From sequence record LR597663: a stretch of 64,000 nucleotides of DNA, one strand, 5' to 3'. A program made the translations under genes and the position numbers. The notes beneath the pieces were generated by a model. The model did not search any database and had not been told where the DNA came from. It saw only the letters and a program-made list of their open reading frames with translations. Positions 13,580 through 58,988 of this stretch are shown piece after piece (the first letter of the stretch is position 1; each line of letters opens with the position of its first letter). This stretch comes from Escherichia phage VpaE1_ev78.

Positions 13580-13608
13580 TTGCAATCAGCTATCAAAACA
13601 AGTAAATT
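13580..13608 (+). promoter_or_regulatory. Sigma70-like promoter (TTGCAA-17-TAAATT)
   Basis: -35-like hexamer, 17 nt spacer, TAAATT -10, followed by type A stem-loop. Confidence 0.5.
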
Positions 13609-13610
13609 AC

Positions 13611-13668
13611 TAATCAACGGGAGGGATGACCTCCCCCACTAAATAAAATCCTAAACTGGAGATTCAAA
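13611..13668 (+). promoter_or_regulatory. Cassette type A copy 5
   Basis: caacgggagggatgacctcccccactaaataaaatcctaaactggagattcaaa. Confidence 0.55.
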
Positions 13669-13932
13669 ATGGAACACGTCGAACTGACCACAATTTTACA
13701 AATTGCAACCGACAAAGAGGATGTAGCATTATTCCACCGTATCGAAAGTGATTTGTTCAATGGTGAAATCATTAAAGAGTCTTACGAAGTTGTCGGATTC
13801 AAAGACGGTAAAGCGTTCGGATTCTTTGACCTCGACAAAGGCAAAGCGGTTACAAAATATGATGTTTTATCTTGTGAGATTCTGACAAAATACAACGAAA
13901 AAAGACTTGCAACATACACCAATATGCAGTAA
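13669..13932 (+). CDS. Hypothetical small early protein
   Basis: 87 aa ORF. Confidence 0.45.
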   Translation: MEHVELTTILQIATDKEDVALFHRIESDLFNGEIIKESYEVVGFKDGKAFGFFDLDKGKAVTKYDVLSCEILTKYNEKRLATYTNMQ

Positions 13933-13937
13933 ATTAC

Positions 13938-14012
13938 TAATCAACGGGGAGGGAATGACCTTCCCCACTAAATAAAGTCCTTAAACTACTTCCTAAACTG
14001 GAGATTCTAAAA
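13938..14012 (+). promoter_or_regulatory. Cassette type A copy 6 (with duplicated RBS segment)
   Basis: TAAATT -10 followed by conserved stem-loop; RBS region partly duplicated (cctaaact twice). Confidence 0.55.
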
Positions 14013-14261
14013 ATGGCAACTATCCGCGCAACTGTCAATGCTTATGGCTGTTATACTCTGGACGTTAAATTCGATATTGGTGGAACTGATGAATGCTTTT
14101 CATTAGTGAAGACAGTTATCAAGCAAGTCATTCCAGATTATAATCCTACTGATGACTTCTGGAAAGATGCTGTAAAAGAGGCATTAAACGATGAACATCA
14201 TTACCATTATTGGGGTGACTTAATTGTCTCCCTGTACTACAATAAACAAGGTTACAACTAA
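14013..14261 (+). CDS. Hypothetical small early protein
   Basis: 82 aa ORF, last gene of the plus-strand early array. Confidence 0.45.
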   Translation: MATIRATVNAYGCYTLDVKFDIGGTDECFSLVKTVIKQVIPDYNPTDDFWKDAVKEALNDEHHYHYWGDLIVSLYYNKQGYN

Positions 14262-14299
14262 TCGACGCAACGGGGCTAAATAGCCCCAGATACCTTCAC

Positions 14300-14330
14300 A
14301 GCCCCATTTAAGGGGCTTTTTTACGTCTAT
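14300..14330 (+). terminator. Rho-independent terminator ending the early plus-strand unit
   Basis: cagcccc-attta-aggggct followed by TTTTTTA. Confidence 0.6.
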
Positions 14331-14350
14331 GTAATAGCCTCTATACAATC

Positions 14351-14372
14351 CCTTTCCTTTCCTTTCCTTTCC
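14351..14372. repeat. Microsatellite (CCTTT)4
   Basis: cctttcctttcctttcctttcc read directly. Confidence 0.8.
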
Positions 14373-15904
14373 AGAATCTTACCAGACCTTAAAAGTAATA
14401 ACTCTATAGCTTACTCTATAACCTCTTATCAAATCAACTTAAATATAAGCCCATAACCCGAGAGGGAAGGGCAACCGTTTAAACGCTCTATAAAGCTCTA
14501 TAACGGCCTTATCAACCTAACTTAAGGGATTGCATTAACTCACCCTAAAAAGCCCTTTATAGAGCTTCCTATAGCCTTAAAAGAATCTTATAAGGGTGTA
14601 AGCTTTATCATCTCGTTAGTTATCTTGTGAACTACTAAAAAGGGCTATGAGATAGGAATCTATCGAATCCTATTGTTAGTGTCTTAAAAGTATGTTATAG
14701 GGGCTTTAAAGTTACTTCAAAGTTGCTTAAAAGGAGCTATAAAGTTACGTAAATGCTAGCCCCCTTAACATTTTCTTAACAATTTCTTAACAATCCCTAC
14801 ATAGTTATGCTTTTAAGGCACTTGTTAGCAACTTGTTAGCCCCTTGTTAAATCTCTGTTAAGACCACGTAAAAGCCTTGTAAGAGTCTTTGACATAGCCT
14901 TAAAAGCTCCTGTAAAGCCCTATAAAGAGGTATCTGTACAGTTGGGGGATAGATACTAGGAAGAGACTTAAAAGAGCTTATAAAGAGCTATAGAGAGCTT
15001 TTAAGAGGTATGTTTAAAGAATCACTAAGAAAGGAAAGGGAACGATAAGAAAAGAAGTAGTGACCATGTTAATAGCTTGTTAAAAAGATTAAACACTTGT
15101 TAGAAACTTGTTAATTATCTTAACAAAATAACTCTTAAAAATTAACTTGTTAGCTCTTGTTAGTCATCTGTTAAGATTCTGTAAAGCCTATTCAGTACTT
15201 GTTAGAAATCTGTTACAGCCTTGTTAGTTCTGTTAAGAATCTGTTAAGACCTTTGAAGAGTTGTTAAGAAGGTGTTAGAACTGTTAAGAGATTGTTAAGG
15301 ATATTTTAAAATTTTGCAAAGTACTTGTAAGGGAGCTGTTAAGGGCTACCAAGCAGATATACATCCTAATCAGATATTTTTGAGTTCCTTCAAAGACCCT
15401 AAAAAATGACTTGACAGTCCTATTTTATAAAAATTTTAAGATTCTGAATAATTACCTATACAGCCTTTTAAAAATACAGGTAATAACAGGCTTATAAGAT
15501 ACCTTGTTAGTACCGTGTTAGACCTTGTGAGATAAGGTCTGTAAAGATATTCCTGTTAAGTTTGTTAAAACAGTCTATATAGAGGCTTAGTAATACCTAG
15601 TGAACACCTATAGAGAGTATCATAGCTAACATAGAGATTAAGAGGTGTATAGGAGCTTCTAAGAAGGTGTAGAGGGATGGTTAAGGTGATTGTATAGGTT
15701 GTTAAGAAGGCTTGTTAGAGGGCTTGTTAGAAGGGTTATACAGAGGGGCTATTAAGACCACTAGATAGTTACTAAGATACTATATAGTACTATATAACTA
15801 TATAGAGAGTAAGATTAAGAAGGTTGTTAAGAAGGATAGATACTTTATTCACATATGATGGTGACCCAGAGGTTGGGACAACCGATAAAATTTTATAAAA
15901 AATA

Positions 15905-15935
15905 TAAATTTCGTAAATTTTACTCAATAAAAAGC
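15905..15935 (-). terminator. Rho-independent terminator for the minus-strand unit
   Basis: Minus-strand reading agcctcc-ttaatt-gggggct followed by TTTTTATT. Confidence 0.5.
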
Positions 15936-15963
15936 CCCCAATTAAGGAGGCTCTTAAGATATT

Positions 15964-16557
15964 TTAAATCAGTGTTTCCAGAACTGTTTTTAGGGATGAC
16001 TTAGTTGTCTGATAAAAATGAGTGAATCCGTTGTTATTATCGAATATCTGCATCATGATATCATCTCCCTTGATTGGATACACTCGGATATCATAGTGAA
16101 ACCCATTAAAGACAGCAGAACCATTACAGAACACACTAAAATCATCCACTGAGATGTACTCTTCATGACCTGTGATTTTTATACAGATACCCTTACTTGG
16201 TCTCTTAGGATTGATGTCTTCCATAATAGACATACTCTGTCCACCAAGAGATACCATCGTGACCACTTTACGGTTCTTCTGTTTAAAGTACATCTTAACT
16301 TTCTGCAAAGTGTCTTCATAGAACGGATAAGACCTTTCTACAAAGATTCCTTCAAGTGGCTCTTTACCATTTTCAACTTCTCGGTTATGCCGTACTGCAA
16401 AGATAATTTGTTCGAACCAGTCAAGATTTTCTTCGGAGAGTGCTTCCCGAATATCACTCCAATCAAGGACTAGATAGTTACCTTCAACTTCTTTTAAGTT
16501 ATCTTTTTCCATAGCTATCACACCATTATCGTAAAACTTGGTAAGCTGGAACCGCAA
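15964..16557 (-). CDS. Hypothetical protein
   Basis: 197 aa ORF, last gene of minus-strand operon. Confidence 0.45.
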   Translation of the reverse strand: MRFQLTKFYDNGVIAMEKDNLKEVEGNYLVLDWSDIREALSEENLDWFEQIIFAVRHNREVENGKEPLEGIFVERSYPFYEDTLQKVKMYFKQKNRKVVTMVSLGGQSMSIMEDINPKRPSKGICIKITGHEEYISVDDFSVFCNGSAVFNGFHYDIRVYPIKGDDIMMQIFDNNNGFTHFYQTTKSSLKTVLETLI

Positions 16558-26405: not shown

Positions 26406-26482
26406 CTCTGTTTAGCTCAGCTTGGTAGAGCGTTCCGTTTGGGGCGGTAAGGCCGGAGGTTCAAGTCCTCCAACAGAGACCA
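26406..26482 (+). tRNA. tRNA-Pro (anticodon TGG), CCA encoded
   Basis: 7 bp acceptor ctctgtt/aacagag, D-loop with GG, T-arm ggagg-ttcaagt-cctcc; hand-folded. Confidence 0.55.
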
Positions 26483-26489
26483 AATTAAT

Positions 26490-26567
26490 GTTCCAGTAGA
26501 CAAAATGGTAAAGTCACCACTCTTTCAAAGTGGATATCTGAGGGTTCAAATCCCTTCTGGAACGCCA
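26490..26567 (+). tRNA. tRNA-Glu (TTC)
   Basis: Acceptor gttccag/ctggaac, anticodon stem ccact/agtgg with loop ctTTCaa, T-loop ttcaaat, CCA encoded. Confidence 0.6.
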
Positions 26568-26574
26568 GTTTTGA

Positions 26575-26648
26575 CAGAAGACCAATTGCAGCAAACTTAA
26601 TCTTATTCATCTGAAGGTAAATCGGACAAAGAAGAGATTTGGTCTGGT
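26575..26648 (+). repeat. Inverted-repeat-bracketed element, copy 1 (cagaagacca ... tggtctgg)
   Basis: Conserved 5' end cagaagacc(a/g)..t.cagcaa and 3' end ggtctgg shared by four elements; ends are mutually complementary. Confidence 0.55.
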
Positions 26649-26658
26649 CATTAAGAAT

Positions 26659-26735
26659 TGCGGGTATAGAGAAAGGGCGTCTCACATGTCTCATTAGCAT
26701 GGTATCGGCAGGTTCGACTCCTGCACCCGCCTCCA
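26659..26735 (+). tRNA. tRNA with CAT anticodon (Met/Ile2/initiator type); acceptor register uncertain
   Basis: D-stem gaga/tctc, anticodon stem catgt/gcatg with loop ctCATta, T-arm gcagg-ttcgact-cctgc; 1-72 appears mismatched. Confidence 0.4.
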
Positions 26736-26741
26736 AATTTA

Positions 26742-26806
26742 CAGAAGACCGTTTACAGCAATATTTATTAAATTTTTAGCGGAAAAAATTGAAAGATACG
26801 GTCTGG
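26742..26806 (+). repeat. Inverted-repeat-bracketed element, copy 2
   Basis: 5' acagaagaccgtttacagcaa identical to copy 4; 3' cggtctggtaa. Confidence 0.55.
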
Positions 26807-26819
26807 TAACACTAAACAT

Positions 26820-26896
26820 GGTTAGGAAGCACATAAGGTATGTGCGGTCGCCTGTTAAGCGAATGGCACAGGGTTCGAATCCCTGACTAACCGCCA
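26820..26896 (+). tRNA. tRNA-Asn (GTT)
   Basis: D-stem gcac/gtgc, anticodon loop ctGTTaa, T-arm caggg-ttcgaat-ccctg, CCA encoded. Confidence 0.55.
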
Positions 26897-26905
26897 AATT
26901 TAAAT

Positions 26906-26993
26906 GTGTCGTTATCCCGTAGATGGTAGCGGTGGGGACTGTAAATCCCTTGTCATTGAGACTCGGTAGGTTCGACTCCTACACGGCACACCA
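26906..26993 (+). tRNA. tRNA-Tyr (GTA), long variable arm
   Basis: Acceptor gtgtcgt/acggcac, anticodon loop ctGTAaa, 88 nt with extra arm, T-arm gtagg-ttcgact-cctac, CCA encoded. Confidence 0.6.
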
Positions 26994-26998
26994 ATAAA

Positions 26999-27076
26999 GG
27001 TTATGTAGTTTAATTTGGTTAAAATACTCCCCTGTCACGGGAGATGATGAGGGTTCAAATCCCTTCGTAACCGCCA
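26999..27076 (+). tRNA. tRNA-Asp (GTC)
   Basis: Acceptor ggttatg/cgtaacc, anticodon stem ctccc/gggag with loop ctGTCac, T-loop ttcaaat, CCA encoded. Confidence 0.65.
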
Positions 27077-27137
27077 ATTTTGAGAGGGCTATTTAGCCCC
27101 TCCCTTAAAGAGTTCTTACGAGTATTCTTTAAAGGAG

Positions 27138-27211
27138 CAGAAGACCAAATACAGCAAGTTATTTAAAATTTCAAGCCAATTTAATTTTGAAAAATTTAAA
27201 ACTTGGTCTGG
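27138..27211 (+). repeat. Inverted-repeat-bracketed element, copy 3
   Basis: cagaagaccaaatacagcaag ... cttggtctgg. Confidence 0.5.
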
Positions 27212-27224
27212 CTCAACAAATTTA

Positions 27225-27355
27225 CAGAAGACCGTTTACAGCAAAACTTAACAATCTATTTCTCCGGTAAAGAAAAGGCGAAGGTTCGATTCCTTCACTC
27301 GGCAGATGTCGAGTTGGTGTAATGGTAGTACTTAAGATGATAAACAACGGTCTGG
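27225..27355 (+). ncRNA. Inverted-repeat-bracketed element, copy 4, carrying tRNA-like fragments (candidate structured ncRNA or decayed tRNA)
   Basis: Same conserved ends as copy 2; interior has a T-arm gaagg-ttcgatt-ccttc (27280-27296), a 7 bp hairpin (27297-27314) and a D-arm-like tggtgtaatggtagtac, but no anticodon arm. Confidence 0.4.
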
Positions 27356-27504
27356 TAATTATCTTTGTAGATAAGTTATTAAGCTTACCTGTGAGTATGC
27401 GACCACAAAGGGTGAAAGGGTAAATTCTAGATTTAAACCCAAAAAGGCACATCGCTACAGACCTTAAGCAAGTCTGGGTAGCTTATCTACAAAGATAATT
27501 TAAT

Positions 27505-27580
27505 GGAAGTGTAGCAGAATGGTGATGCGGCAGACTTTTAATCTGACAGGCGATGGGTTCGAATCCCTCCACTTCTACCA
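27505..27580 (+). tRNA. tRNA-Lys (TTT)
   Basis: Acceptor ggaagtg/cacttct, anticodon loop ctTTTaa, T-loop ttcgaat, CCA encoded; T-stem appears short. Confidence 0.5.
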
Positions 27581-27584
27581 ATAT

Positions 27585-27661
27585 GGTTCAGTCGCAGATA
27601 AGGTAATGCAAGGGTCTCATAAGCCCTATGAATGTGGGTTCGATTCCCATCTGAACCTCCA
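27585..27661 (+). tRNA. tRNA-Met (CAT)
   Basis: Acceptor ggttcag/ctgaacc, anticodon stem agggt/gccct with loop ctCATaa, T-arm gtggg-ttcgatt-cccat, CCA encoded. Confidence 0.6.
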
Positions 27662-27662
27662 A

Positions 27663-27738
27663 GCTGGTATAGTTAAGAAGGTTATAACACTCCCCTGATA
27701 AGGGAACATCGGTGGTTCGATTCCACCTACCAGTACCA
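27663..27738 (+). tRNA. tRNA-Ile (GAT)
   Basis: Acceptor gctggta/taccagt, D-stem gtta/taac, anticodon loop ctGATaa, T-arm ggtgg-ttcgatt-ccacc, CCA encoded. Confidence 0.65.
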
Positions 27739-27753
27739 ATTTCAATAAAGTTG

Positions 27754-27782
27754 TTGACATTGAGATGTGACTACTTTATAGT
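27754..27782 (+). promoter_or_regulatory. Sigma70-like promoter (TTGACA-17-TATAGT) inside tRNA region
   Basis: Consensus -35, 17 nt spacer, TATAGT -10. Confidence 0.55.
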
Positions 27783-27986
27783 AACCTTAGTTTTCGTTGC
27801 GTAGCGTCTATTTTGCAAATTTAAAATAAATGCAAACGACAATGTTTTTCTGGCAGTAGCTTGATAGGCTAAACACCAGTGAGGTCTTCCAATCCCTCAT
27901 CAAAGAATTTGGCGTACTCGCCCACGGTATGATTAATAAGGTGGGCATCTTTAAGGGCTTTCTAAGAGAGTCTTTAAAGATAATTA

Positions 27987-28068
27987 CGGGGCGTATCTCA
28001 GCGGTCTTCTAAACCGCCGTTAACCGAGTAAGTGGAGTATGCGGGTTCGAGTCCTGCCGCCTCGACCA
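27987..28068 (+). tRNA. Atypical tRNA-like gene (no clear D-arm; anticodon-type loop ctTCTaa); identity unresolved
   Basis: Acceptor cggggcg/cgcctcg, T-arm gcggg-ttcgagt-cctgc and CCA present; only one perfect 5 bp stem-loop in the body, 23 nt between it and the T-arm. Confidence 0.3.
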
Positions 28069-28082
28069 ATTTTGGAGAAATC

Positions 28083-28430
28083 ATGAAAACTTGTATTAGG
28101 TGCAAACTTAGCAAGGATGAAAATGATTTCTACATGAAAGATGGTAGGAGAACTCATTCATACTGTAAAAAGTGTGTTAATGAGCAAACCATAGAAAGAC
28201 AAAGAGCACTTAAACTCTCAGCTATTGAGTACAAAGGTGGGGTTTGTCACGATTGTGGTAAAAAGTATCATCCAGCAGTGTATGACTTCCATCATTTGAA
28301 TCCTTCAGAGAAAGATTTTAACATTGGTCATAGGAAAAGCCTTAAGTTCTCTCAAGAACTAAAAGATGAACTTGACAAATGTGTTTTGCTATGTTCAAAT
28401 TGCCATAGGGTAAGACATGCAAAGTATTAG
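28083..28430 (+). CDS. HNH endonuclease with N-terminal zinc finger
   Basis: Start at ATG (MKTCIRCK) with GGAG RBS; CxxC...CxxC then DFHHLNP...LLCSNCHRVRH (HNH motif); track start 28032 lies in the upstream tRNA. Confidence 0.6.
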   Translation: MKTCIRCKLSKDENDFYMKDGRRTHSYCKKCVNEQTIERQRALKLSAIEYKGGVCHDCGKKYHPAVYDFHHLNPSEKDFNIGHRKSLKFSQELKDELDKCVLLCSNCHRVRHAKY

Positions 28431-28573
28431 TTAGCAGATTACTTAGACGACCTAAGCGGGTCTTCCTGTAGGGAGGTGGTCTGTATCTCATGTTTTCCAG
28501 AACATGTAAATAATCTGAGAAGAAGCTTGACAGTGTTGAGATAACAGGGTAAGCTTCGAATTATAGTTTTAAT

Positions 28574-28644
28574 AGGGGTGAGCTATGGCAGCAATAGAGT
28601 CTCCAAAATTCTTGATTAGAGTTCGAATCTCTACACCCCTGCCA
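28574..28644 (+). tRNA. tRNA-Trp (CCA)
   Basis: Acceptor aggggtg/cacccct, anticodon loop ctCCAaa, T-arm tagag-ttcgaat-ctcta, CCA encoded. Confidence 0.5.
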
Positions 28645-28658
28645 GAACAGGTGCTTGT

Positions 28659-29063
28659 ATGAAACTTTGTAGAAAATGTTCTCAAGAAAAGCCTTTAAGC
28701 TGCTTTCATAAAAGAGGTAATGGCTATCAGTCTGCTTGCAAAGATTGTAAAGCTAAGTACTCAGCAAAGAGATACAAAGAAGACCCTACTTATAAAGCAA
28801 AAAGAAAAGTTAGGGCAAAATATGACAAAAAGAGGAACAGAGAGTTCCTTAGTAGATATAAAAAGTTTTGCAAATGCAGAATATGTGGCGAATCTGAGCC
28901 AGTAGCTTTGGATTTTCATCACTTAGACCCTAAAGAGAAAGATTTTGCTCCAAGCAATCTTAAAACTTACTCTAGGGGCACTATTAAGCGTGAAGTCCGT
29001 AAGTGTGTTGTGCTTTGTTCAAACTGTCATAGGAAAGTTCATGAAGGACTGTTAAGTATTTAA
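28659..29063 (+). CDS. HNH endonuclease with N-terminal zinc finger (paralog of 28083-28430)
   Basis: 134 aa; CRKCSQEK...CKDC zinc finger and DFHHLDPKEKDF...VLCSNCHRKVH HNH motif. Confidence 0.6.
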   Translation: MKLCRKCSQEKPLSCFHKRGNGYQSACKDCKAKYSAKRYKEDPTYKAKRKVRAKYDKKRNREFLSRYKKFCKCRICGESEPVALDFHHLDPKEKDFAPSNLKTYSRGTIKREVRKCVVLCSNCHRKVHEGLLSI

Positions 29064-29076
29064 CAGTCTTATTAGG

Positions 29077-29164
29077 GGTAGGTAGCGGCTAATGGTAGCC
29101 AAACTGTCTTGAAAACAGTTGCCACTGTAGAGATACGGTGAGGGTTCGACTCCTTTACTTACCG
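29077..29164 (+). tRNA. tRNA-Ser (TGA), long variable arm
   Basis: Acceptor ggtaggt/acttacc, anticodon stem actgt/acagt with loop ctTGAaa, 88 nt with extra arm. Confidence 0.6.
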
Positions 29165-29323
29165 CCTAATAAGATTTAAAGCCAAGCTTCATTCGGATGT
29201 TGCTTTGGTATCCCGCGTGTATTGTTGTACACACTGATAAAGCACCTAGTAGGTGTCACGGAGAAGAGATAATATCAAGCTCTCCAAAGGTTCTAGTCAC
29301 CGGATTAAACAAGACTATGCAAA

Positions 29324-29350
29324 GACCTTTTTAGGTCTTTTTAGAGGGCT
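29324..29350 (+). terminator. Terminator-like hairpin
   Basis: aaagacc-ttttta-ggtcttt followed by TTAG. Confidence 0.4.
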
Positions 29351-29421
29351 TCTAAGGTTATTACAGCTTGTTGTGGAACCTTGTTGCTTAGGTTCTTAGA
29401 AGTTCTCTAAAAAGATTTAAT

Positions 29422-29499
29422 GGGAGATTGACGGTAATTGGTAAACCTATCTCGCTTAGAACGAGATGTTTGAGGGTTCGAATCCCTTGTCTCCTACCA
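29422..29499 (+). tRNA. tRNA with anticodon TAG (Leu-type) but short variable loop
   Basis: Acceptor gggagat/gtctcct, perfect anticodon stem tctcg/cgaga with loop ctTAGaa, T-arm gaggg-ttcgaat-ccctt, CCA encoded; only 5 nt variable region. Confidence 0.45.
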
Positions 29500-29506
29500 A
29501 ATTAAT

Positions 29507-29582
29507 GCAGGTGTAGCAAAATGGTTATGCGGCTGACTCTTAATCAGTAAGACGATGGGTTCAATTCCCTCCACCTGTACCA
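29507..29582 (+). tRNA. tRNA-Lys (CTT)
   Basis: Acceptor gcaggtg/cacctgt, anticodon loop ctCTTaa, T region gatgggttcaattccctcc like the Lys(TTT) gene, CCA encoded. Confidence 0.5.
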
Positions 29583-29587
29583 AAAAT

Positions 29588-29663
29588 GGGGTCATAGTTT
29601 ATATGGTTAAAATTCGAGTTTTGCAAACTTGGGAACTGAGTTCAATTCTCAGTGACTCCACCA
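29588..29663 (+). tRNA. tRNA-Ala (TGC)
   Basis: Acceptor ggggtca/tgactcc, anticodon stem cgagt/acttg with loop ttTGCaa, T-arm ctgag-ttcaatt-ctcag, CCA encoded. Confidence 0.6.
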
Positions 29664-29669
29664 ATTAGT

Positions 29670-29744
29670 GCATCCATAGTTTAAACGGGAAAATTACAGT
29701 CTTCCAAACTGAGGTTGAGGGTTCGATTCCCTCTGGATGCTCCA
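29670..29744 (+). tRNA. tRNA-Gly (TCC)
   Basis: Acceptor gcatcca/tggatgc, anticodon loop ctTCCaa, T-arm gaggg-ttcgatt-ccctc, CCA encoded. Confidence 0.6.
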
Positions 29745-29751
29745 AATTAAT

Positions 29752-29827
29752 GCTCCTATCGTATAATTGGCTATTACGGTTGCCTTGTAAGTAACTTATC
29801 AGGGTTCGAATCCTTGTGGGAGCACCA
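29752..29827 (+). tRNA. tRNA-Thr (TGT)
   Basis: Acceptor gctccta/tgggagc, anticodon stem gttgc/gtaac with loop ctTGTaa, T-loop ttcgaat, CCA encoded. Confidence 0.6.
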
Positions 29828-29924
29828 ATTTAGAGGTCAAGTGAAAGACCGCTTTGAGTCAACTGAAGACCGTAACAAATTCCACGGAGTTGAGTTAGCG
29901 GCACAACTCCAGACCTCTTCTCAC

Positions 29925-29999
29925 ACTCGCTTAGTTTATATGGTAAAACACCACCCTTACAAGATGAAGAAAAAGGTTCAAGTCCTTTAGTGAGTACCA
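29925..29999 (+). tRNA. tRNA, anticodon uncertain (possibly TAC, Val)
   Basis: Acceptor actcgct/agtgagt, T-arm aaagg-ttcaagt-ccttt, CCA encoded; anticodon stem pairs poorly. Confidence 0.4.
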
Positions 30000-30000
30000 T

Positions 30001-30078
30001 GTTCCAGTATCCCAATTGGCAGAGGATGCAAGCTCAAACCTTGTACTAGTGATGGTTCGAATCCATCTTGGAACACCA
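30001..30078 (+). tRNA. tRNA with anticodon CAA (Leu-type) but short variable loop
   Basis: Acceptor gttccag/ttggaac, anticodon stem gcaag/cttgt with loop ctCAAac, T-arm gatgg-ttcgaat-ccatc, CCA encoded. Confidence 0.45.
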
Positions 30079-30083
30079 ATTTT

Positions 30084-30159
30084 GCAGGATTAGTTCAAAT
30101 GGATAGAGCAACAGTCTACGAAGCTGTTAATAGGGGTTCAAATCCCTTATCCTGCGCCA
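30084..30159 (+). tRNA. tRNA-Arg (ACG)
   Basis: Acceptor gcaggat/atcctgc, anticodon stem acagt/gctgt with loop ctACGaa, T-loop ttcaaat, CCA encoded. Confidence 0.6.
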
Positions 30160-30178
30160 ATTTAAAGAGGCTATTTAG

Positions 30179-30736
30179 ATGAGATATTTGAAGTATGCTT
30201 CATGGATTTTCTTAGCTTTGTTAGAACCATTTGCAGCAATCTTAGCAGTTATCTTAGCACCTTTTGTAGTTCCATTCTACAGTGAGAAGAAAGGACACTT
30301 ACCTTTCGGGTTCAGATGGATGGAGACATATGACAACCCAATTGATGGTGATGAAGGTCACGTTAAAAGATGGGCTAATATTAGATGGATTGGTAAACTA
30401 GGTGTCTACATGCAAAGAGTCGGATGGCTCTGGAGAAACAAAGCTTATAACTTCTCTTACCATGTGTTAGGAAGAGATGTAAAAGATGTTACTAAGTGGA
30501 AAGGTAATATCAACGTAAGTTCTAACCCTGAAGATAATCAGACAGGTTATCTCCTAATGTGGAACAGTAATGCTTGGGGATTATTCGCTTTTACCCCATC
30601 AATTAAAATCTTTGGTAAACAGTTTTACTGGAGAATTTATATTGGGTGGAAGCTAAAAAGTGTTGTCCCAGAAGAAAGAGCATTCTCAAGGGAAAGAGTT
30701 ATGTTGGCATTCTTTATTCATCCACTAAGAAAGTAA
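30179..30736 (+). CDS. Hypothetical membrane protein embedded in tRNA array
   Basis: 185 aa; AAGAGG RBS; hydrophobic N-terminus WIFLALLEPFAAILAVILAPFVVPF; Trp-rich. Confidence 0.5.
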   Translation: MRYLKYASWIFLALLEPFAAILAVILAPFVVPFYSEKKGHLPFGFRWMETYDNPIDGDEGHVKRWANIRWIGKLGVYMQRVGWLWRNKAYNFSYHVLGRDVKDVTKWKGNINVSSNPEDNQTGYLLMWNSNAWGLFAFTPSIKIFGKQFYWRIYIGWKLKSVVPEERAFSRERVMLAFFIHPLRK

Positions 30737-30744
30737 AGATTTAA

Positions 30745-30820
30745 AGGGGATTAGTTTACAAGGTTAAAACCTCGGTCTTTGAAATCGAAGAAGTTGGTTC
30801 AATTCCAACATCCCCCGCCA
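30745..30820 (+). tRNA. tRNA-Gln (TTG)
   Basis: Acceptor aggggat/atccccc with 1-72 mismatch, anticodon loop ctTTGaa, T-arm gttgg-ttcaatt-ccaac, CCA encoded. Confidence 0.5.
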
Positions 30821-30822
30821 AT

Positions 30823-30901
30823 GCTCCATTACTCCAATTGGCAGAGAGGCCAGACTTAAAATCTGTGTTATGTATCGGTTCGAATCCGATATGGAGTACC
30901 A
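30823..30901 (+). tRNA. tRNA with anticodon TAA (Leu-type), atypical fold
   Basis: Acceptor gctccat/atggagt, 4 bp anticodon stem with loop ctTAAaa, T-arm atcgg-ttcgaat-ccgat, CCA encoded; 8 nt variable region. Confidence 0.4.
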
Positions 30902-30905
30902 AATT

Positions 30906-30981
30906 TAGCGGTATAGCATAACTGGCAATGCAGCAGCCTCTGAAGCTGTCCTATTAAGGTTCAAATCCTTATGCCGCTGCC
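30906..30981 (+). tRNA. tRNA-Gln (CTG)
   Basis: Acceptor agcggta/tgccgct, anticodon stem gcagc/gctgt with loop ctCTGaa, T-loop ttcaaat, CCA encoded. Confidence 0.5.
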
Positions 30982-31012
30982 ACTTCTAAGGATTCTTACG
31001 AGAGTCCTTAAA

Positions 31013-31088
31013 TGTGGCCTTATCATAAATGGTAATGACCCATGCTGTGAACATGGTCTATACGGGTTCAAATCCCGTAGGTCACCCC
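31013..31088 (+). tRNA. tRNA-His (GTG)
   Basis: Acceptor gtggcct/aggtcac, D-stem tcat/atga, perfect anticodon stem ccatg/catgg with loop ctGTGaa, discriminator C, CCA encoded. Confidence 0.65.
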
Positions 31089-31092
31089 AATT

Positions 31093-31168
31093 TATAGTCC
31101 AAGTAGCTTATATGGTTAAAGCGCGTGTCTGAAAAACATGAGAAGAGGGTTCAAATCCCACTGGACTA
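31093..31168 (+). tRNA. tRNA-Phe (GAA)
   Basis: Perfect 7 bp acceptor tagtcca/tggacta, anticodon stem cgtgt/acatg with loop ctGAAaa, T-loop ttcaaat. Confidence 0.6.
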
Positions 31169-31187
31169 CCAATTTCAAAGGTGCTTA

Positions 31188-31922
31188 ATGAAAGAGATGA
31201 CAGAACAAGGTAAGGAGATTTTTAATCTCTTAAAAACCGGTAAAGGGTTCTCTAACCCACTTATTACTGGTGCAGCAGTTCTCGGTGGAACCGTAGCTGC
31301 TTCTACATCACTTGTAAGCTCTATTAGTTCTGTAACAGACCCTACAATGAAGGAGAAACTTGTTGCTGCTGGACTTACAACAGTCCTTCTAAACAGCTTT
31401 ACAACAAGCCTTACAAGCACTACAGCAACTACTAAAACTCTGACAGACTACGGTCAAAAGTCTATTGATGAGTTTTCATCACGTATGCAGGTAGCAAAGG
31501 GGTATTCCAATGTTATGGGTGCAGCAGGAGAACAAGTTGGTTGTACACCATTCAGTGGTATCATGGGTGTTGCTACAGAGTATGGTCAAAAAGCTATTGA
31601 CATGATGAACAGTACACTAGATAGTGTTAATGGTGTGTTAAGTGACTTGCAAGATGCTATTGATAAGGGTCTTGATACTGTTTCTGATTTAGCTAATCAG
31701 GCTGTTAGTAAGATTAATGAAGGTATTTCAAAGATTACAGCTTATGCAGATGAAGTTGTGCAGATGATTGAAGAAGAAGCTGCCCTTATTGCAGAGTACC
31801 TTAAAACGAATATCAATGGGTTCTTAGCAGGTATCTTACCAGACTGGTTTGATGATGCCTGTAAAACTGGTGTGATTGACACTATTGCAACACCAGAAAT
31901 GAAGAGCGCATTACAGAAATAA
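31188..31922 (+). CDS. Hypothetical Ser/Thr-rich protein
   Basis: Start at internal ATG (MKEMTEQ) with AAAGGTG RBS, because track start 31125 lies inside tRNA-Phe. Confidence 0.45.
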   Translation: MKEMTEQGKEIFNLLKTGKGFSNPLITGAAVLGGTVAASTSLVSSISSVTDPTMKEKLVAAGLTTVLLNSFTTSLTSTTATTKTLTDYGQKSIDEFSSRMQVAKGYSNVMGAAGEQVGCTPFSGIMGVATEYGQKAIDMMNSTLDSVNGVLSDLQDAIDKGLDTVSDLANQAVSKINEGISKITAYADEVVQMIEEEAALIAEYLKTNINGFLAGILPDWFDDACKTGVIDTIATPEMKSALQK

Positions 31923-31924
31923 AT

Positions 31925-32017
31925 GGAAGATTAACCCTAAAAGGTAAGGGAGCAGTTTGCTAAACTGCCAGTAGCTGAGAAATCGGTGTACCAGTTCAAG
32001 TCTGGTATCTTCCTCCA
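31925..32017 (+). tRNA. tRNA-Ser (GCT), long variable arm
   Basis: Acceptor ggaagat/atcttcc, anticodon stem gcagt/actgc with loop ttGCTaa, 93 nt with extra arm, CCA encoded. Confidence 0.65.
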
Positions 32018-32021
32018 ATTT

Positions 32022-32097
32022 GAATCCGTGACAGAAATGGCTATGTGCCTGTCTGCAAAACAGGTTTATAAGGGTTCGAGTCCCTTCGGATTCTCCA
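32022..32097 (+). tRNA. tRNA-Cys (GCA)
   Basis: Acceptor gaatccg/cggattc, anticodon stem cctgt/acagg with loop ctGCAaa, T-arm aaggg-ttcgagt-ccctt, CCA encoded. Confidence 0.65.
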
Positions 32098-32319: not shown

Positions 32320-32520
32320 ATGAGTGAGACCGTTTATAAAGAACTTTATGAAGCTAATAAGAAGCTAGAATTTATGCAGAATACTATCATGGCAATTGCA
32401 GACAGATTGTCTGTAGCAACAGGTATTGATATTAAAGAAGCATCTATGGATGCACTTCTTGATGCTGTTGATGCAAAGTTCGAAGTTAAGAAAGAAGAGA
32501 CTGCTACAGACTCTGAATAA
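32320..32520 (+). CDS. Small protein upstream of large terminase
   Basis: 66 aa ORF with GGAGA RBS; too small to call a small terminase with confidence. Confidence 0.4.
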   Translation: MSETVYKELYEANKKLEFMQNTIMAIADRLSVATGIDIKEASMDALLDAVDAKFEVKKEETATDSE

Positions 32521-32541
32521 TTCTATTTGCGGAGGCGCTTA

Positions 32542-34143
32542 ATGGACTTAAATGCTGTTAAGCAGAAGCGAGTGGAAGATGTTAGGAAAGTCCTAGCTGG
32601 AGAGTTGGGGCTTTCTGATGAAGTAAAAGAAATTATCAAATCATTCGGTAAAGACCCCTCTAAATTCCTTCCAACTCAAATTCTGACTTTATTAAGATAC
32701 ACACCAGACCAAGTTCGCCTTATCTTTAAATTGATGACTGATAAGAACTATGTAGCCCCTCAACCGGGTTCTCAAGAGGTCTTTTTAAATACTAATGCTG
32801 ACTTGGTTCTTTATGGTGGTGCTGCTGGTGCTGGTAAAACTGCTGCATTGTTAATGGACTCTTTAAGATTTATTGAAGACCCTAACTATAATGCTGTATA
32901 TTTCCGTCGAAATACAACACAGTTACAAGGTGGTTTATGGCCTGCTGCAAAGAAACTATTTGGTAAGTTTGGTGGGATTCCTCACGAGCAGAAGATGACT
33001 ATCACATTCCCTTCTGGGGCAACTATCAAGTTTACCTACCTAGAACTTGAAAAGCACGCTGAAGGTCATCAGGGTATTGAATACTCAGCTATTTACTTTG
33101 ACGAAGGTACACACTTCTCTGCTTCACAGATTTCATACCTACAAACCCGTCTACGTTCTGGTGCTGAAGGCGATTCATACATGAAGATTTCCATGAACCC
33201 AGACAGAGACCATTTTATTTATGATTGGGTAGAACCATTCTTAGATGAAGAAGGTTATCCAGACCCTGAAAAGTGTGGTCGTATTCGTTGGTATGTAATG
33301 AATGATGGTGTGATGGTTTCTGATTGGGAGAGAGACAAGATTCTTGAAATGTTCCCTCTTGAGATTCCTCAAACATACACCTTTATCTCTGGTACGATTG
33401 ATGATAACCCAATCCTTGACTTCTTAGAGCCTAAGTACCGTGGTAAGTTGGAAAACAACACCCCTGTAAACGTTGCAAGACTTCGTTTCGGTAACTGGAA
33501 GGCTCGTGCAGAAGGTTCAAACTATTGGCAAAGACAATGGTGTGAAATTGTTGATTCACTCCCAGAAGATGTATTTGATGTTAGAGCATGGGACTTAGCA
33601 GCAACTTTACCATCTGAGATTAACCCTAATCCAGACTGGACAGCAGGTGTTAAGATGGGTAAATCTAAAAAAGACGGTTGCTATTATATCATTGATGTAG
33701 TAAGATTTAGAGATAGACCCTCTGGAGTCGAAACACAAATTAATTTGACTGCTGAAAGTGACGGTAAGCGAACTGGTATTTTTATCCCTCAAGACCCAGG
33801 CGCTGCTGGTAAATCCTACGCAACATCCCTCATCAGGAAACTTGCCGAGAAAGGCTATCGTGCAAGAGCTAAACCAACAAATAAAGATAAAGTTACCCGA
33901 TTTGCGGGGTTTTCTGCTGCTTCTGAAGCTGGACTTGTAAAAGTCTTGAGAGGTAGTTGGAACGAAGCTTACTTCCAAGAACTTGAAGGCTTTTGTGGTG
34001 ATGGTAAAACTAAAGATGACCAAGTGGATGCTACCAGTGATGCTTTCAACAGTCTTAACGAAGTTAAATTATTCAAGCCACCATCAATGGGTGCTCACAC
34101 AGACTTAGTGAGAGGAAACCCATATGAGGGGCTTAGACGTTGA
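32542..34143 (+). CDS. Terminase large subunit
   Basis: About 533 aa from ATG after GGAGG RBS (track used TTG at 32527); Walker A-like GGAAGAGKT; first gene of head operon. Confidence 0.6.
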   Translation: MDLNAVKQKRVEDVRKVLAGELGLSDEVKEIIKSFGKDPSKFLPTQILTLLRYTPDQVRLIFKLMTDKNYVAPQPGSQEVFLNTNADLVLYGGAAGAGKTAALLMDSLRFIEDPNYNAVYFRRNTTQLQGGLWPAAKKLFGKFGGIPHEQKMTITFPSGATIKFTYLELEKHAEGHQGIEYSAIYFDEGTHFSASQISYLQTRLRSGAEGDSYMKISMNPDRDHFIYDWVEPFLDEEGYPDPEKCGRIRWYVMNDGVMVSDWERDKILEMFPLEIPQTYTFISGTIDDNPILDFLEPKYRGKLENNTPVNVARLRFGNWKARAEGSNYWQRQWCEIVDSLPEDVFDVRAWDLAATLPSEINPNPDWTAGVKMGKSKKDGCYYIIDVVRFRDRPSGVETQINLTAESDGKRTGIFIPQDPGAAGKSYATSLIRKLAEKGYRARAKPTNKDKVTRFAGFSAASEAGLVKVLRGSWNEAYFQELEGFCGDGKTKDDQVDATSDAFNSLNEVKLFKPPSMGAHTDLVRGNPYEGLRR

Positions 34144-58658: not shown

Positions 58659-58988
58659 TTAATCTGCCAGCCTTAAATTAAAATTAACACCAAATTTTTC
58701 GCATACTTCCAACATATACTCAAGGGAGACATTACCAGTGAGGTGGATTATGTTGGATACGCGAGCCTGAGAGATACCACAAATTTTAGCAACTTGCTCT
58801 TGAGAAAGACCTCTGGATTTAATCTCTCTCTTAAAACGATGTGCAACGAAATCTCTCATTTCGTCTACATCCATTGGACAAATATAACTCTCCATTTCAG
58901 CCTCTCTGTCAGCCTCCCAATCATCTTGTGGAGCATAAGGGTCAAAAACCTCATTCATCTTTCTTCTTCCGTTTTCGTGAAGTGTCAA
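58659..58988 (-). CDS. Helix-turn-helix DNA-binding protein (XRE-like)
   Basis: 109 aa; C-terminal LSQEQVAKICGISQARVSNIIHLTGNVSLEYMLEVCEKFGV resembles an XRE-family HTH. Confidence 0.5.
   Translation of the reverse strand: MTLHENGRRKMNEVFDPYAPQDDWEADREAEMESYICPMDVDEMRDFVAHRFKREIKSRGLSQEQVAKICGISQARVSNIIHLTGNVSLEYMLEVCEKFGVNFNLRLAD

Follow-up and report, generated by a model that had tools for sequence, protein, structure and literature searches.

Helix-phased motif arrays at the genome ends of a Felix O1-like phage: a candidate cis-acting packaging region

What is the role of a 1702-bp island devoid of genes and crowded with short repeats in the genome of Escherichia phage VpaE1_ev78? The island occupies positions 14262-15963 of the 64,000-nucleotide stretch of record LR597663 analysed here (the window) and, as stated in an initial annotation made from the sequence alone, it is the largest stretch of the window lacking an open reading frame (ORF) of at least 60 amino acids (aa) on either strand; the runners-up, of 766, 579 and 485 bp, are all tRNA regions. 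The initial annotation offered a menu of possible roles for the repeats, i.e., replication origin, packaging or partition site, or binding array for a phage protein. The best explanation overall, to which we assign a probability of roughly 0.6, is that the island is the concatemer junction of a genome with direct terminal repeats (DTR), the arrays being part of the cis-acting packaging machinery; the packaging or terminus entry of that menu is indeed the one borne out by the DTR edges of four relatives and by the DTRs published for phages of this type.

The window belongs to Felixounavirus (Felix O1-like myoviruses), and the island is ~91% identical to the same intergenic locus in Felix O1, in wV8-like phages and in many other Felixounavirus genomes; of the 255 records that match it, 191 do so across 80% or more of the query. 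In a more sensitive search several independent records were found to start exactly at base 498 of the island query, and in four relatives, namely HP1 (a Mooglevirus record with an annotated repeat_region), I14.1, CRP22 and NBEco005, 100%-identical direct repeats of 570, 581, 579 and 651 bp, respectively, are present at both ends of the record. All four repeats start at the position homologous to 14759 of the window and stop at that homologous to 15350. With the caret marking the edge, the sequences read …GTAAATGCTA^GCCCCCTTAACA… and …TGTTAAGGGCTACC^AAGCAGATATACA… across the four relatives and the window, the latter having …GCTA^GCCCCCTTAACA at the left edge (14759) and …GGGCTACC^AAGCAGATATACA at the right edge (15350).

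Published mapping agrees with these edges. The DTR of UAB_Phi87, determined by Bal31 digestion (which degraded two specific fragments of the phage DNA) and run-off sequencing, is 608 bp long (PMC4837284), and 614 bp separate the same edge motifs in its record, within 6 bp of the wet-lab value; a DTR of 581 bp was obtained for Pr103Blw by PhageTerm (PMC8303462), and clustering of the large terminase subunit (TerL) places the Felix O1-like phages in a DTR group (PMC4837284). The DTRs published for UAB_Phi87, Pr103Blw and HP1 map, by sequence homology, to the locus considered here. The ends appear fixed and non-permuted, being identical in four independent records and carrying signatures conserved in 17-19 distinct sequences from four genera; on the basis of homology and of the mapping in relatives, the two edges are taken to be the ends of the virion DNA. 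We regard the assignment of the locus as genome terminus and DTR as nearly certain. In the Felix O1 genome paper short terminal repeats were inferred, and because such genomes are conventionally opened at rIIA, the ends sit in the middle of the window as one collapsed copy; what the initial annotation missed is precisely that the assembly is a collapsed, circularly opened representation. In the island the two physical ends of the genome, right and left, are joined across a single DTR copy.

Three records deserve a comment. In PC79-13 (OR687644.2, marked circular) a 127-bp terminal repeat_region is annotated; it was rejected as the DTR, its position being different (15203-15329), and, mapping inside the DTR, it looks like an assembly overlap. 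The I14.1 record (PP892526.1) has a Tequintavirus (T5-like) taxonomy line despite its Felix O1-like genome, and the 147-kb record of 'Staphylococcus phage SA1' (GU169904.1) holds a Felix O1-like island at 135357-137078, which suggests that it is chimeric or contaminated.

If the locus is a terminus, what are its repeats? Counts in the island were compared with those in 1000 dinucleotide-preserving shuffles of it. The hexamer TGTTAR occurs 29 times on the plus strand (1.9+-1.4 in shuffles; z=20) and, as YTAACA on the minus strand, 5 times (1.3+-1.1; z=3.3), to be compared with about one per kb per strand in the remaining window; CTTGTTAG is found 10 times and CTGTTAAG 7 times (0.06 and 0.08 in shuffles, respectively), and the octamer CTNNNNAG 67 times (11.8+-3.2; z=17). 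A position weight matrix (PWM) refined from the sites has the consensus aCTTGTTARga, with the core T-G-T-T-A at 0.89-0.96 per position, and recognises 38 sites in the island, 31 of them on the plus strand, against 3.1+-2.0 in shuffles. The dozens of degenerate copies claimed at the outset are thus real, and so is a second family, TATAGAG/CTCTATA, with 10 copies versus 0.78. The initial annotation had allowed that motif density might be no higher than in shuffled sequence, or that the region might simply be a terminus: the density lies above that of the shuffles, and the region is a terminus, but one whose arrays are conserved in register.

The spacing of about one helical turn also holds. The modal gap between successive plus-strand sites is 11 bp (10 of 28 gaps), the distances between pairs of CTN4AG octamers peak at 10-11, 21-22, 32-33 and 42-44 bp, and the Fourier spectrum peaks at 10.5 bp with a power of 11.5, above the maximum (10.6) of 2000 random-position nulls. 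The only phased TGTTAR pairs outside the island (31625 and 55399) were dismissed as chance, the places concerned being a coding region and an ordinary promoter of sigma-70-like type.

When the motifs are placed relative to the predicted cuts, their distribution follows the anatomy of the ends:

14262-15963, no strand: whole non-coding island, the proposed junction of the genome ends; ORF-free, with the homologous DTR edges inside
14262-14758, no strand: right-end unique spacer, preceding the right DTR copy in virion DNA
14704-14758, plus strand: five 11-bp units up to the left-end cut, CTTTAAAGTTA CTTCAAAGTTG CTTAAAAGGAG CTATAAAGTTA CGTAAATGCTA
14759-15350, no strand: DTR-homologous segment, 592 bp here, with 27 of the 38 PWM sites
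14764-14792, minus strand: three inverted CTTAACA units (14764, 14775 and 14786) at 11-bp spacing, inside the left edge
14820-15345, plus strand: direct TGTTAR arrays within the DTR (14820-14864 and 15064-15345), mostly 9-12 bp apart
15313-15363, plus strand: right-edge signature TTTGCAAAG-N29-AAGCAGATATACA, with the cut after 15350
15351-15963, no strand: left-end unique spacer, following the left DTR copy, with 11 PWM TGTTAR sites

No PWM site falls in the right-end spacer (0 of 38), which has one exact TGTTAG core (at 14674) and carries instead members of the second family, CTCTATA being repeated five times at 14339-14502 in addition to CTTAAAAG/CTATAAAG, as well as an imperfect 48-nt palindrome centred near 14530 (arms 14478-14525 and 14535-14582). 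The last of the 11-bp units before the left-end cut contains the palindrome TTACGTAA (14745-14752), 6 bp from that cut. Inside the DTR the orientation of the units reverses, from inverted at 14764-14792 to the other direction from 14820 onward, and the arrays are interrupted by a CTTAAAAG/CTATAGAG block (14899-15005) and by a purine-rich spacer; the inner extremities of the DTR form imperfect inverted repeats (14762-14793 versus 15314-15345, 72% complementary), and the left cut falls inside a larger dyad (14699-14733 versus 14810-14844). Beyond the right cut CAGATAT is repeated, at 15354 and 15371, and the left-end spacer has its PWM sites at 15480-15571, 15656, 15697-15733 and 15822, together with TATAGAG/CTATATAG repeats at 15575-15615 and 15780-15807.

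Conservation was analysed in a nine-genome alignment comprising Felixounavirus, Mooglevirus and Suspvirus. The TGTTAR columns are conserved at 0.94 versus 0.84 for the other columns, and the 30-bp bins holding the two DTR edges reach 0.98 and 0.92; between genera, the island DNA is 74-78% identical and the adjacent protein 48-55% identical. In the more distant Erwinia Kolesnikvirus (Roscha1) and Salmonella phage PMBT37 only about 100 bases can be aligned with the island, and the plan is shared nonetheless: TTAACA-type units at 11-bp spacing inside the left edge, both edge signatures, and TGTTAAGA arrays across a 439-bp DTR-sized segment and beyond, the right-end spacer of the Erwinia/Kolesnikvirus lineage carrying a different motif, CTTCTAAG. 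A scan of IMG/VR for the right-edge signature yielded 17 Ounavirinae loci, all with a gap of exactly 29 nt, as is also found in the window and in Erwinia phage Roscha1, and all with the left-edge signature 439-658 bp upstream of the right-edge one; the remaining 4 of 21 matches, with a 25-nt gap inside a tape-measure-like gene of an unrelated phage, were discarded as chance. At the left edge, TTACGTAA-N6^GCC is conserved in 17 distinct sequences.

The way in which the homologues differ in length is equally regular. Indels measure 11 bp (13 cases) or 21-23 bp (7 cases), with none of 8-10 or 14-20 bp, and isolates have 2, 3 or 4 CTTAACA units inside the left end; change therefore proceeds in modules of 11 bp, which preserves the helical register. 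The DTR-sized segment ranges from 570-658 bp in the E. coli and Salmonella genera to 439 bp in the Erwinia lineage. Motif conservation and the 11-bp register argue, as far as sequence comparison goes, that the arrays are not inert and have a function in binding protein. The same observations bear on the idea that the island is structural DNA only, its phased A/T-rich octamers curving or wrapping the molecule to the benefit of any terminase or host nucleoid protein, with no dedicated binder, and its repeats persisting through slippage. Indeed, the 10.5-bp periodicity, the unit-sized indels, compatible with replication slippage between tandem units, and the polymorphic copy number (2-4 TTAACA units) would all be accounted for; a nearly invariant TGTTA core (0.89-0.96), kept across genera while the spacers diverge, would not, since curvature alone would not demand it, and the periodicity of AA dinucleotides is only borderline (power 7.3 versus a 99th-percentile null of 8.4), so that we regard this explanation as improbable.

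How could such arrays serve packaging? According to the mechanism that we propose, unit-length genomes would be packaged with short exact DTRs from a replicating concatemer, in which the right-end spacer (14262-14758), one DTR copy (14759-15350) and the left-end spacer (15351-15963) would follow one another in this order. As indicated by homology and by the end mapping published for relatives, the terminase makes its cuts at two defined positions, A14758^G14759 and C15350^A15351, and duplication of the DTR gives each virion DNA a copy at both ends. The short motifs would be the cis-acting part of the cutting and packaging machinery, with helix-phased TGTTAR arrays (10.5-11 bp) filling the DTR and the left-end spacer and a genus-specific family (CTnTAAAG/CTCTATA, TTACGTAA) filling the right-end spacer. 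A phage protein, either an unrecognised small terminase subunit or another DNA binder, would bind one face of the helix cooperatively, forming a nucleoprotein structure that marks the junction for the terminase and tells the two cut sites apart, the left cut being specified by TTACGTAA-N6^ and the right cut by TTTGCAAAG-N29^AAGCAGATATACA. That the arrays serve packaging or end processing, rather than another function associated with the ends, we rate at somewhat better than even odds.

The closest parallel is the concatemer junction of T7 and T3, in which a short exact DTR is likewise located in non-coding DNA that separates the transcription units of the right and left ends. A motif of 7-8 nt recurs there in one orientation, regularly spaced, both within the DTR and on either side of it, and the ends are made by sequence-specific terminase cuts, as is proposed here. 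In the T7 sequence, which was checked, the DTR is 160 bp long and the first 420 nt hold 11 copies of CCTAAAG, set at 13-bp intervals immediately beyond the DTR, while additional CCTAAAG/CCTAAGG copies precede the right DTR; the small terminase subunit of T7 recognises PacB and the large subunit cleaves at PacC (PMC9860248). The differences are as evident: the present phage, a myovirus, has a TerL of the T4 type and lacks a recognisable small terminase subunit, its DTR exceeds that of T7 in length by a factor of 3.7, the repeats are spaced at 10.5-11 bp instead of 13 bp, the core is TGTTAR and not CCTAAAG, about 38 sites are present, the second family is confined to the right-end side, the left edge has inverted copies, and the junction is without the promoter cluster that in T7 comprises phiOL and A0-A3. 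No homology to the T7 system was found at the level of the motif, of TerL (T4-type) or of a gp18-like small subunit; the resemblance is therefore one of working principle and not of membership. By analogy, the arrays are best read as a T7-type concatemer junction with short repeats in an unrelated myovirus lineage that has no recognisable small terminase.

A second parallel is offered by the multi-element terminase sites of lambda, whose cosB has R1-R3 and an IHF bend, and of SPP1, with its pacL and pacR boxes. There too short repeats stand beside a fixed cut and a bent or wrapped nucleoprotein complex is proposed; those sites, however, have 3-6 elements over ~100-250 bp and a known small terminase subunit, whereas the island has dozens of units over 1.6 kb and a putative binder.

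The enzyme expected to cut both edges of the DTR is encoded 17 kb from the island:

32527-34143, plus strand: large terminase subunit (TerL), matching phrog_979 (E=8e-234) and the Pfam domains Terminase_6N and Terminase_6C

This T4-type protein has about 95 residues before its ATPase domain, and directly upstream of it lies a 66-aa ORF (32320-32520) that belongs to an unknown-function PHROG and has near-identical unnamed homologues only. The seven ORFs flanking the island have no Pfam domain and match unknown-function PHROGs only, and no DNA-binding domain was detected among the neighbours of the island or of TerL; likewise, no small terminase is annotated in 73 kb of the relative I14.1, whose annotation is PHROG-style. 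The only clear sequence-specific DNA binder met is an HTH_3 (Cro/C1-type) protein at 58659-58988 on the minus strand (E=5e-10), in a nucleotide-metabolism operon; its only link to the island being that it binds DNA, it is no more than a candidate for binding the arrays.

Several points weigh against the packaging interpretation. A recognisable small terminase subunit is missing both near TerL and beside the island, and no binding protein for the arrays was found among the neighbours of either. Thirty-eight sites over 1 kb are far beyond the need of any characterised pac or cos site, and some or all of them could have another role associated with the ends, such as replication priming, end protection or ejection control; nor, to our knowledge, has a function been established for the comparable arrays of T7. 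The edges in this phage are deduced by homology to the ends of its relatives, three of the four DTRs in deposited records were probably called by software from read pileups and not mapped in the wet lab, and the counts of indels and of conserved positions are not phylogenetically independent.

Among the other roles, the likeliest is that of a replication origin, with the repeats as iterons for a phage initiator, an AT-rich stretch as unwinding element and replication starting at or near the ends. Phased direct repeats are iteron-like, AT-rich DNA lies beside the arrays (65 bp with 78% AT at 15870-15934, and a second patch at 15296-15322), the strand composition flips within the island, and T7-type phages have secondary origins near their ends. 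The flip, however, is uninformative, coinciding with the switch in gene orientation: the cumulative GC skew, which the initial annotation had suggested as a check, had to be set aside as evidence for an origin because it simply follows the direction of transcription throughout the window. Moreover, conservation of the AT-rich stretch (0.77-0.82) falls below that of the arrays, the island contains a single DnaA box (a TTWTNCACA match) and no IHF site, no initiator-like gene adjoins it, its neighbours being the domain-free ORFs described above, and in I14.1 the genes for the DNA polymerase and the primase-helicase lie in the middle of the genome, on either side of a divergent intergenic region ~52 kb away from the left end. 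As the mapped termini already explain an architecture anchored at the edges, an origin seems to us rather unlikely.

The partition site of the initial menu fares worse. A plasmid-like centromere would have its 11-bp repeats bound by a ParR- or ParB-type protein, and the blocks of 11-bp direct repeats do recall parC of plasmid R1; with parC and with iteron-type origins the island shares helically phased direct repeats and a nearby AT-rich stretch. The island differs from both in having no adjacent initiator or partition gene and no enrichment of DnaA boxes, and in being placed at physical termini. The phage is a virulent myovirus, no parA-, parM-, parB- or parR-like gene was found beside the island or in the annotated 73 kb of I14.1, and the locus is a physical genome end, which together make partition barely credible.

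Since the arrays occupy both physical ends, they might instead be loaded with a virion, early or host protein serving to cap the ends against RecBCD or to pace the ejection of the DNA. A precedent exists in T5, whose terminal repeat includes an extensive untranslated region, rich in repeats, that has been linked to the arrest of injection (bioRxiv 10.1101/866236). The T5 repeat, however, is ~10 kb long and has 8 ordered DnaA boxes, while the 1.7 kb of the island have one match; two-step injection is not known for Felix O1-like phages; the island has no Chi site; and two different flank signatures at the exact cuts fit the specification of cleavage better than protection. We consider end protection or entry control unlikely. 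A bolder idea combines the two roles: in the Ounavirinae a two-part helix-phased scaffold would replace the canonical small terminase, pick the cut site and cap the ends against RecBCD. The TGTTAR arrays may then coat the DTR and the left end, and the genus-specific family the right end, both through putative phage binders, and the whole may act as a telomere-like cap in phages lacking a known RecBCD inhibitor; this we put forward as a speculation of low probability.

Returning to the packaging junction as the preferred reading, what is new in it should be distinguished from what is not. The DTR of the genus is already published, and the identity of the locus is not new; the published descriptions concern its existence and length only, and the literature searched yielded no account of the arrays, nor of how they are phased, of their strict restriction to the DTR and the left-hand side, of the second family on the right or of the edge signatures. 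A full-text search for the motif strings returned primer lists only, and the Felix O1 genome paper lists other repeats and not the island region; these features thus appear undescribed. The choice of two cut sites by a terminase, and the duplication of the DTR, have been outlined only for T7 and T3 and hardly for DTR myoviruses. To a specialist the element, though well defined, will not be surprising, yet it gives a direct handle on the recognition protein, the core motif and the two edge signatures being usable as bait for the component by which the packaging machinery recognises DNA. Felix O1-like phages serve widely in the typing and biocontrol of Salmonella and E. coli and are being engineered; for annotation, the real ends would be at 14759 and 15350, most records being opened arbitrarily at rIIA, and the surrounding 1.7 kb should be treated as conserved cis-acting DNA and not taken for a neutral insertion site. 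The element is also relevant to genome rebooting and to the design of packaging signals for transducing particles.

As to the remaining features of the island, its upstream border is the stop codon of an 82-aa ORF (14013-14261, plus strand) and its downstream border the stop of a 197-aa ORF (15964-16557, minus strand), and the initial annotation was right in placing it between convergent units that each end in a terminator, and in listing a (CCTTT)4 microsatellite:

14272-14327, plus strand: terminator region of the rIIA-side unit, a hairpin at 14272-14287 followed by a stem-loop at 14300-14317 with a T-run
14351-14372, no strand: (CCTTT)4.4 microsatellite, poorly conserved (0.65-0.68 in its alignment bin)
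15935-15949, minus strand: terminator-like hairpin of the minus-strand unit

In phage AYO145A terminators are annotated at the places homologous to the two terminators. Two short ORFs inside the island, of 45 and 31 aa (15790-15927 on the minus strand and 15314-15409 on the plus strand), were rejected as hidden small genes; because they are interrupted by stops or frameshifts in relatives, the island is considered genuinely non-coding. A structured RNA was also rejected, the Rfam scan of 14000-16200 at E<=1 having returned two chance-level matches only (E=0.39 and 0.86), far below gathering, and so was a promoter cluster (12 promoter-like sites versus 8.2+-3.3 in shuffles). Of the 108 PhoP-type KGTTTA boxes in the window, 2 lie in the island.

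Elsewhere in the window, direct repeats of ~60-75 bp (13602-13675 versus 13929-13988) flank an 87-aa ORF (13669-13932); appearing as secondary BLAST pieces, they may be those direct repeats that the Felix O1 genome paper lists between genes. Twenty-six tRNA genes are clustered on the plus strand at 26406-32097, with small ORFs and a 265-aa DUF7217 protein (31125-31922) in between. Finally, the composition of the window (1-64000) is one of extreme avoidance of restriction and Dam sites: GATC is absent (213-225 expected), and of the 64 palindromic hexamers 33 are found at most once, GAATTC, GGATCC, CTGCAG and GTCGAC being all at 0.

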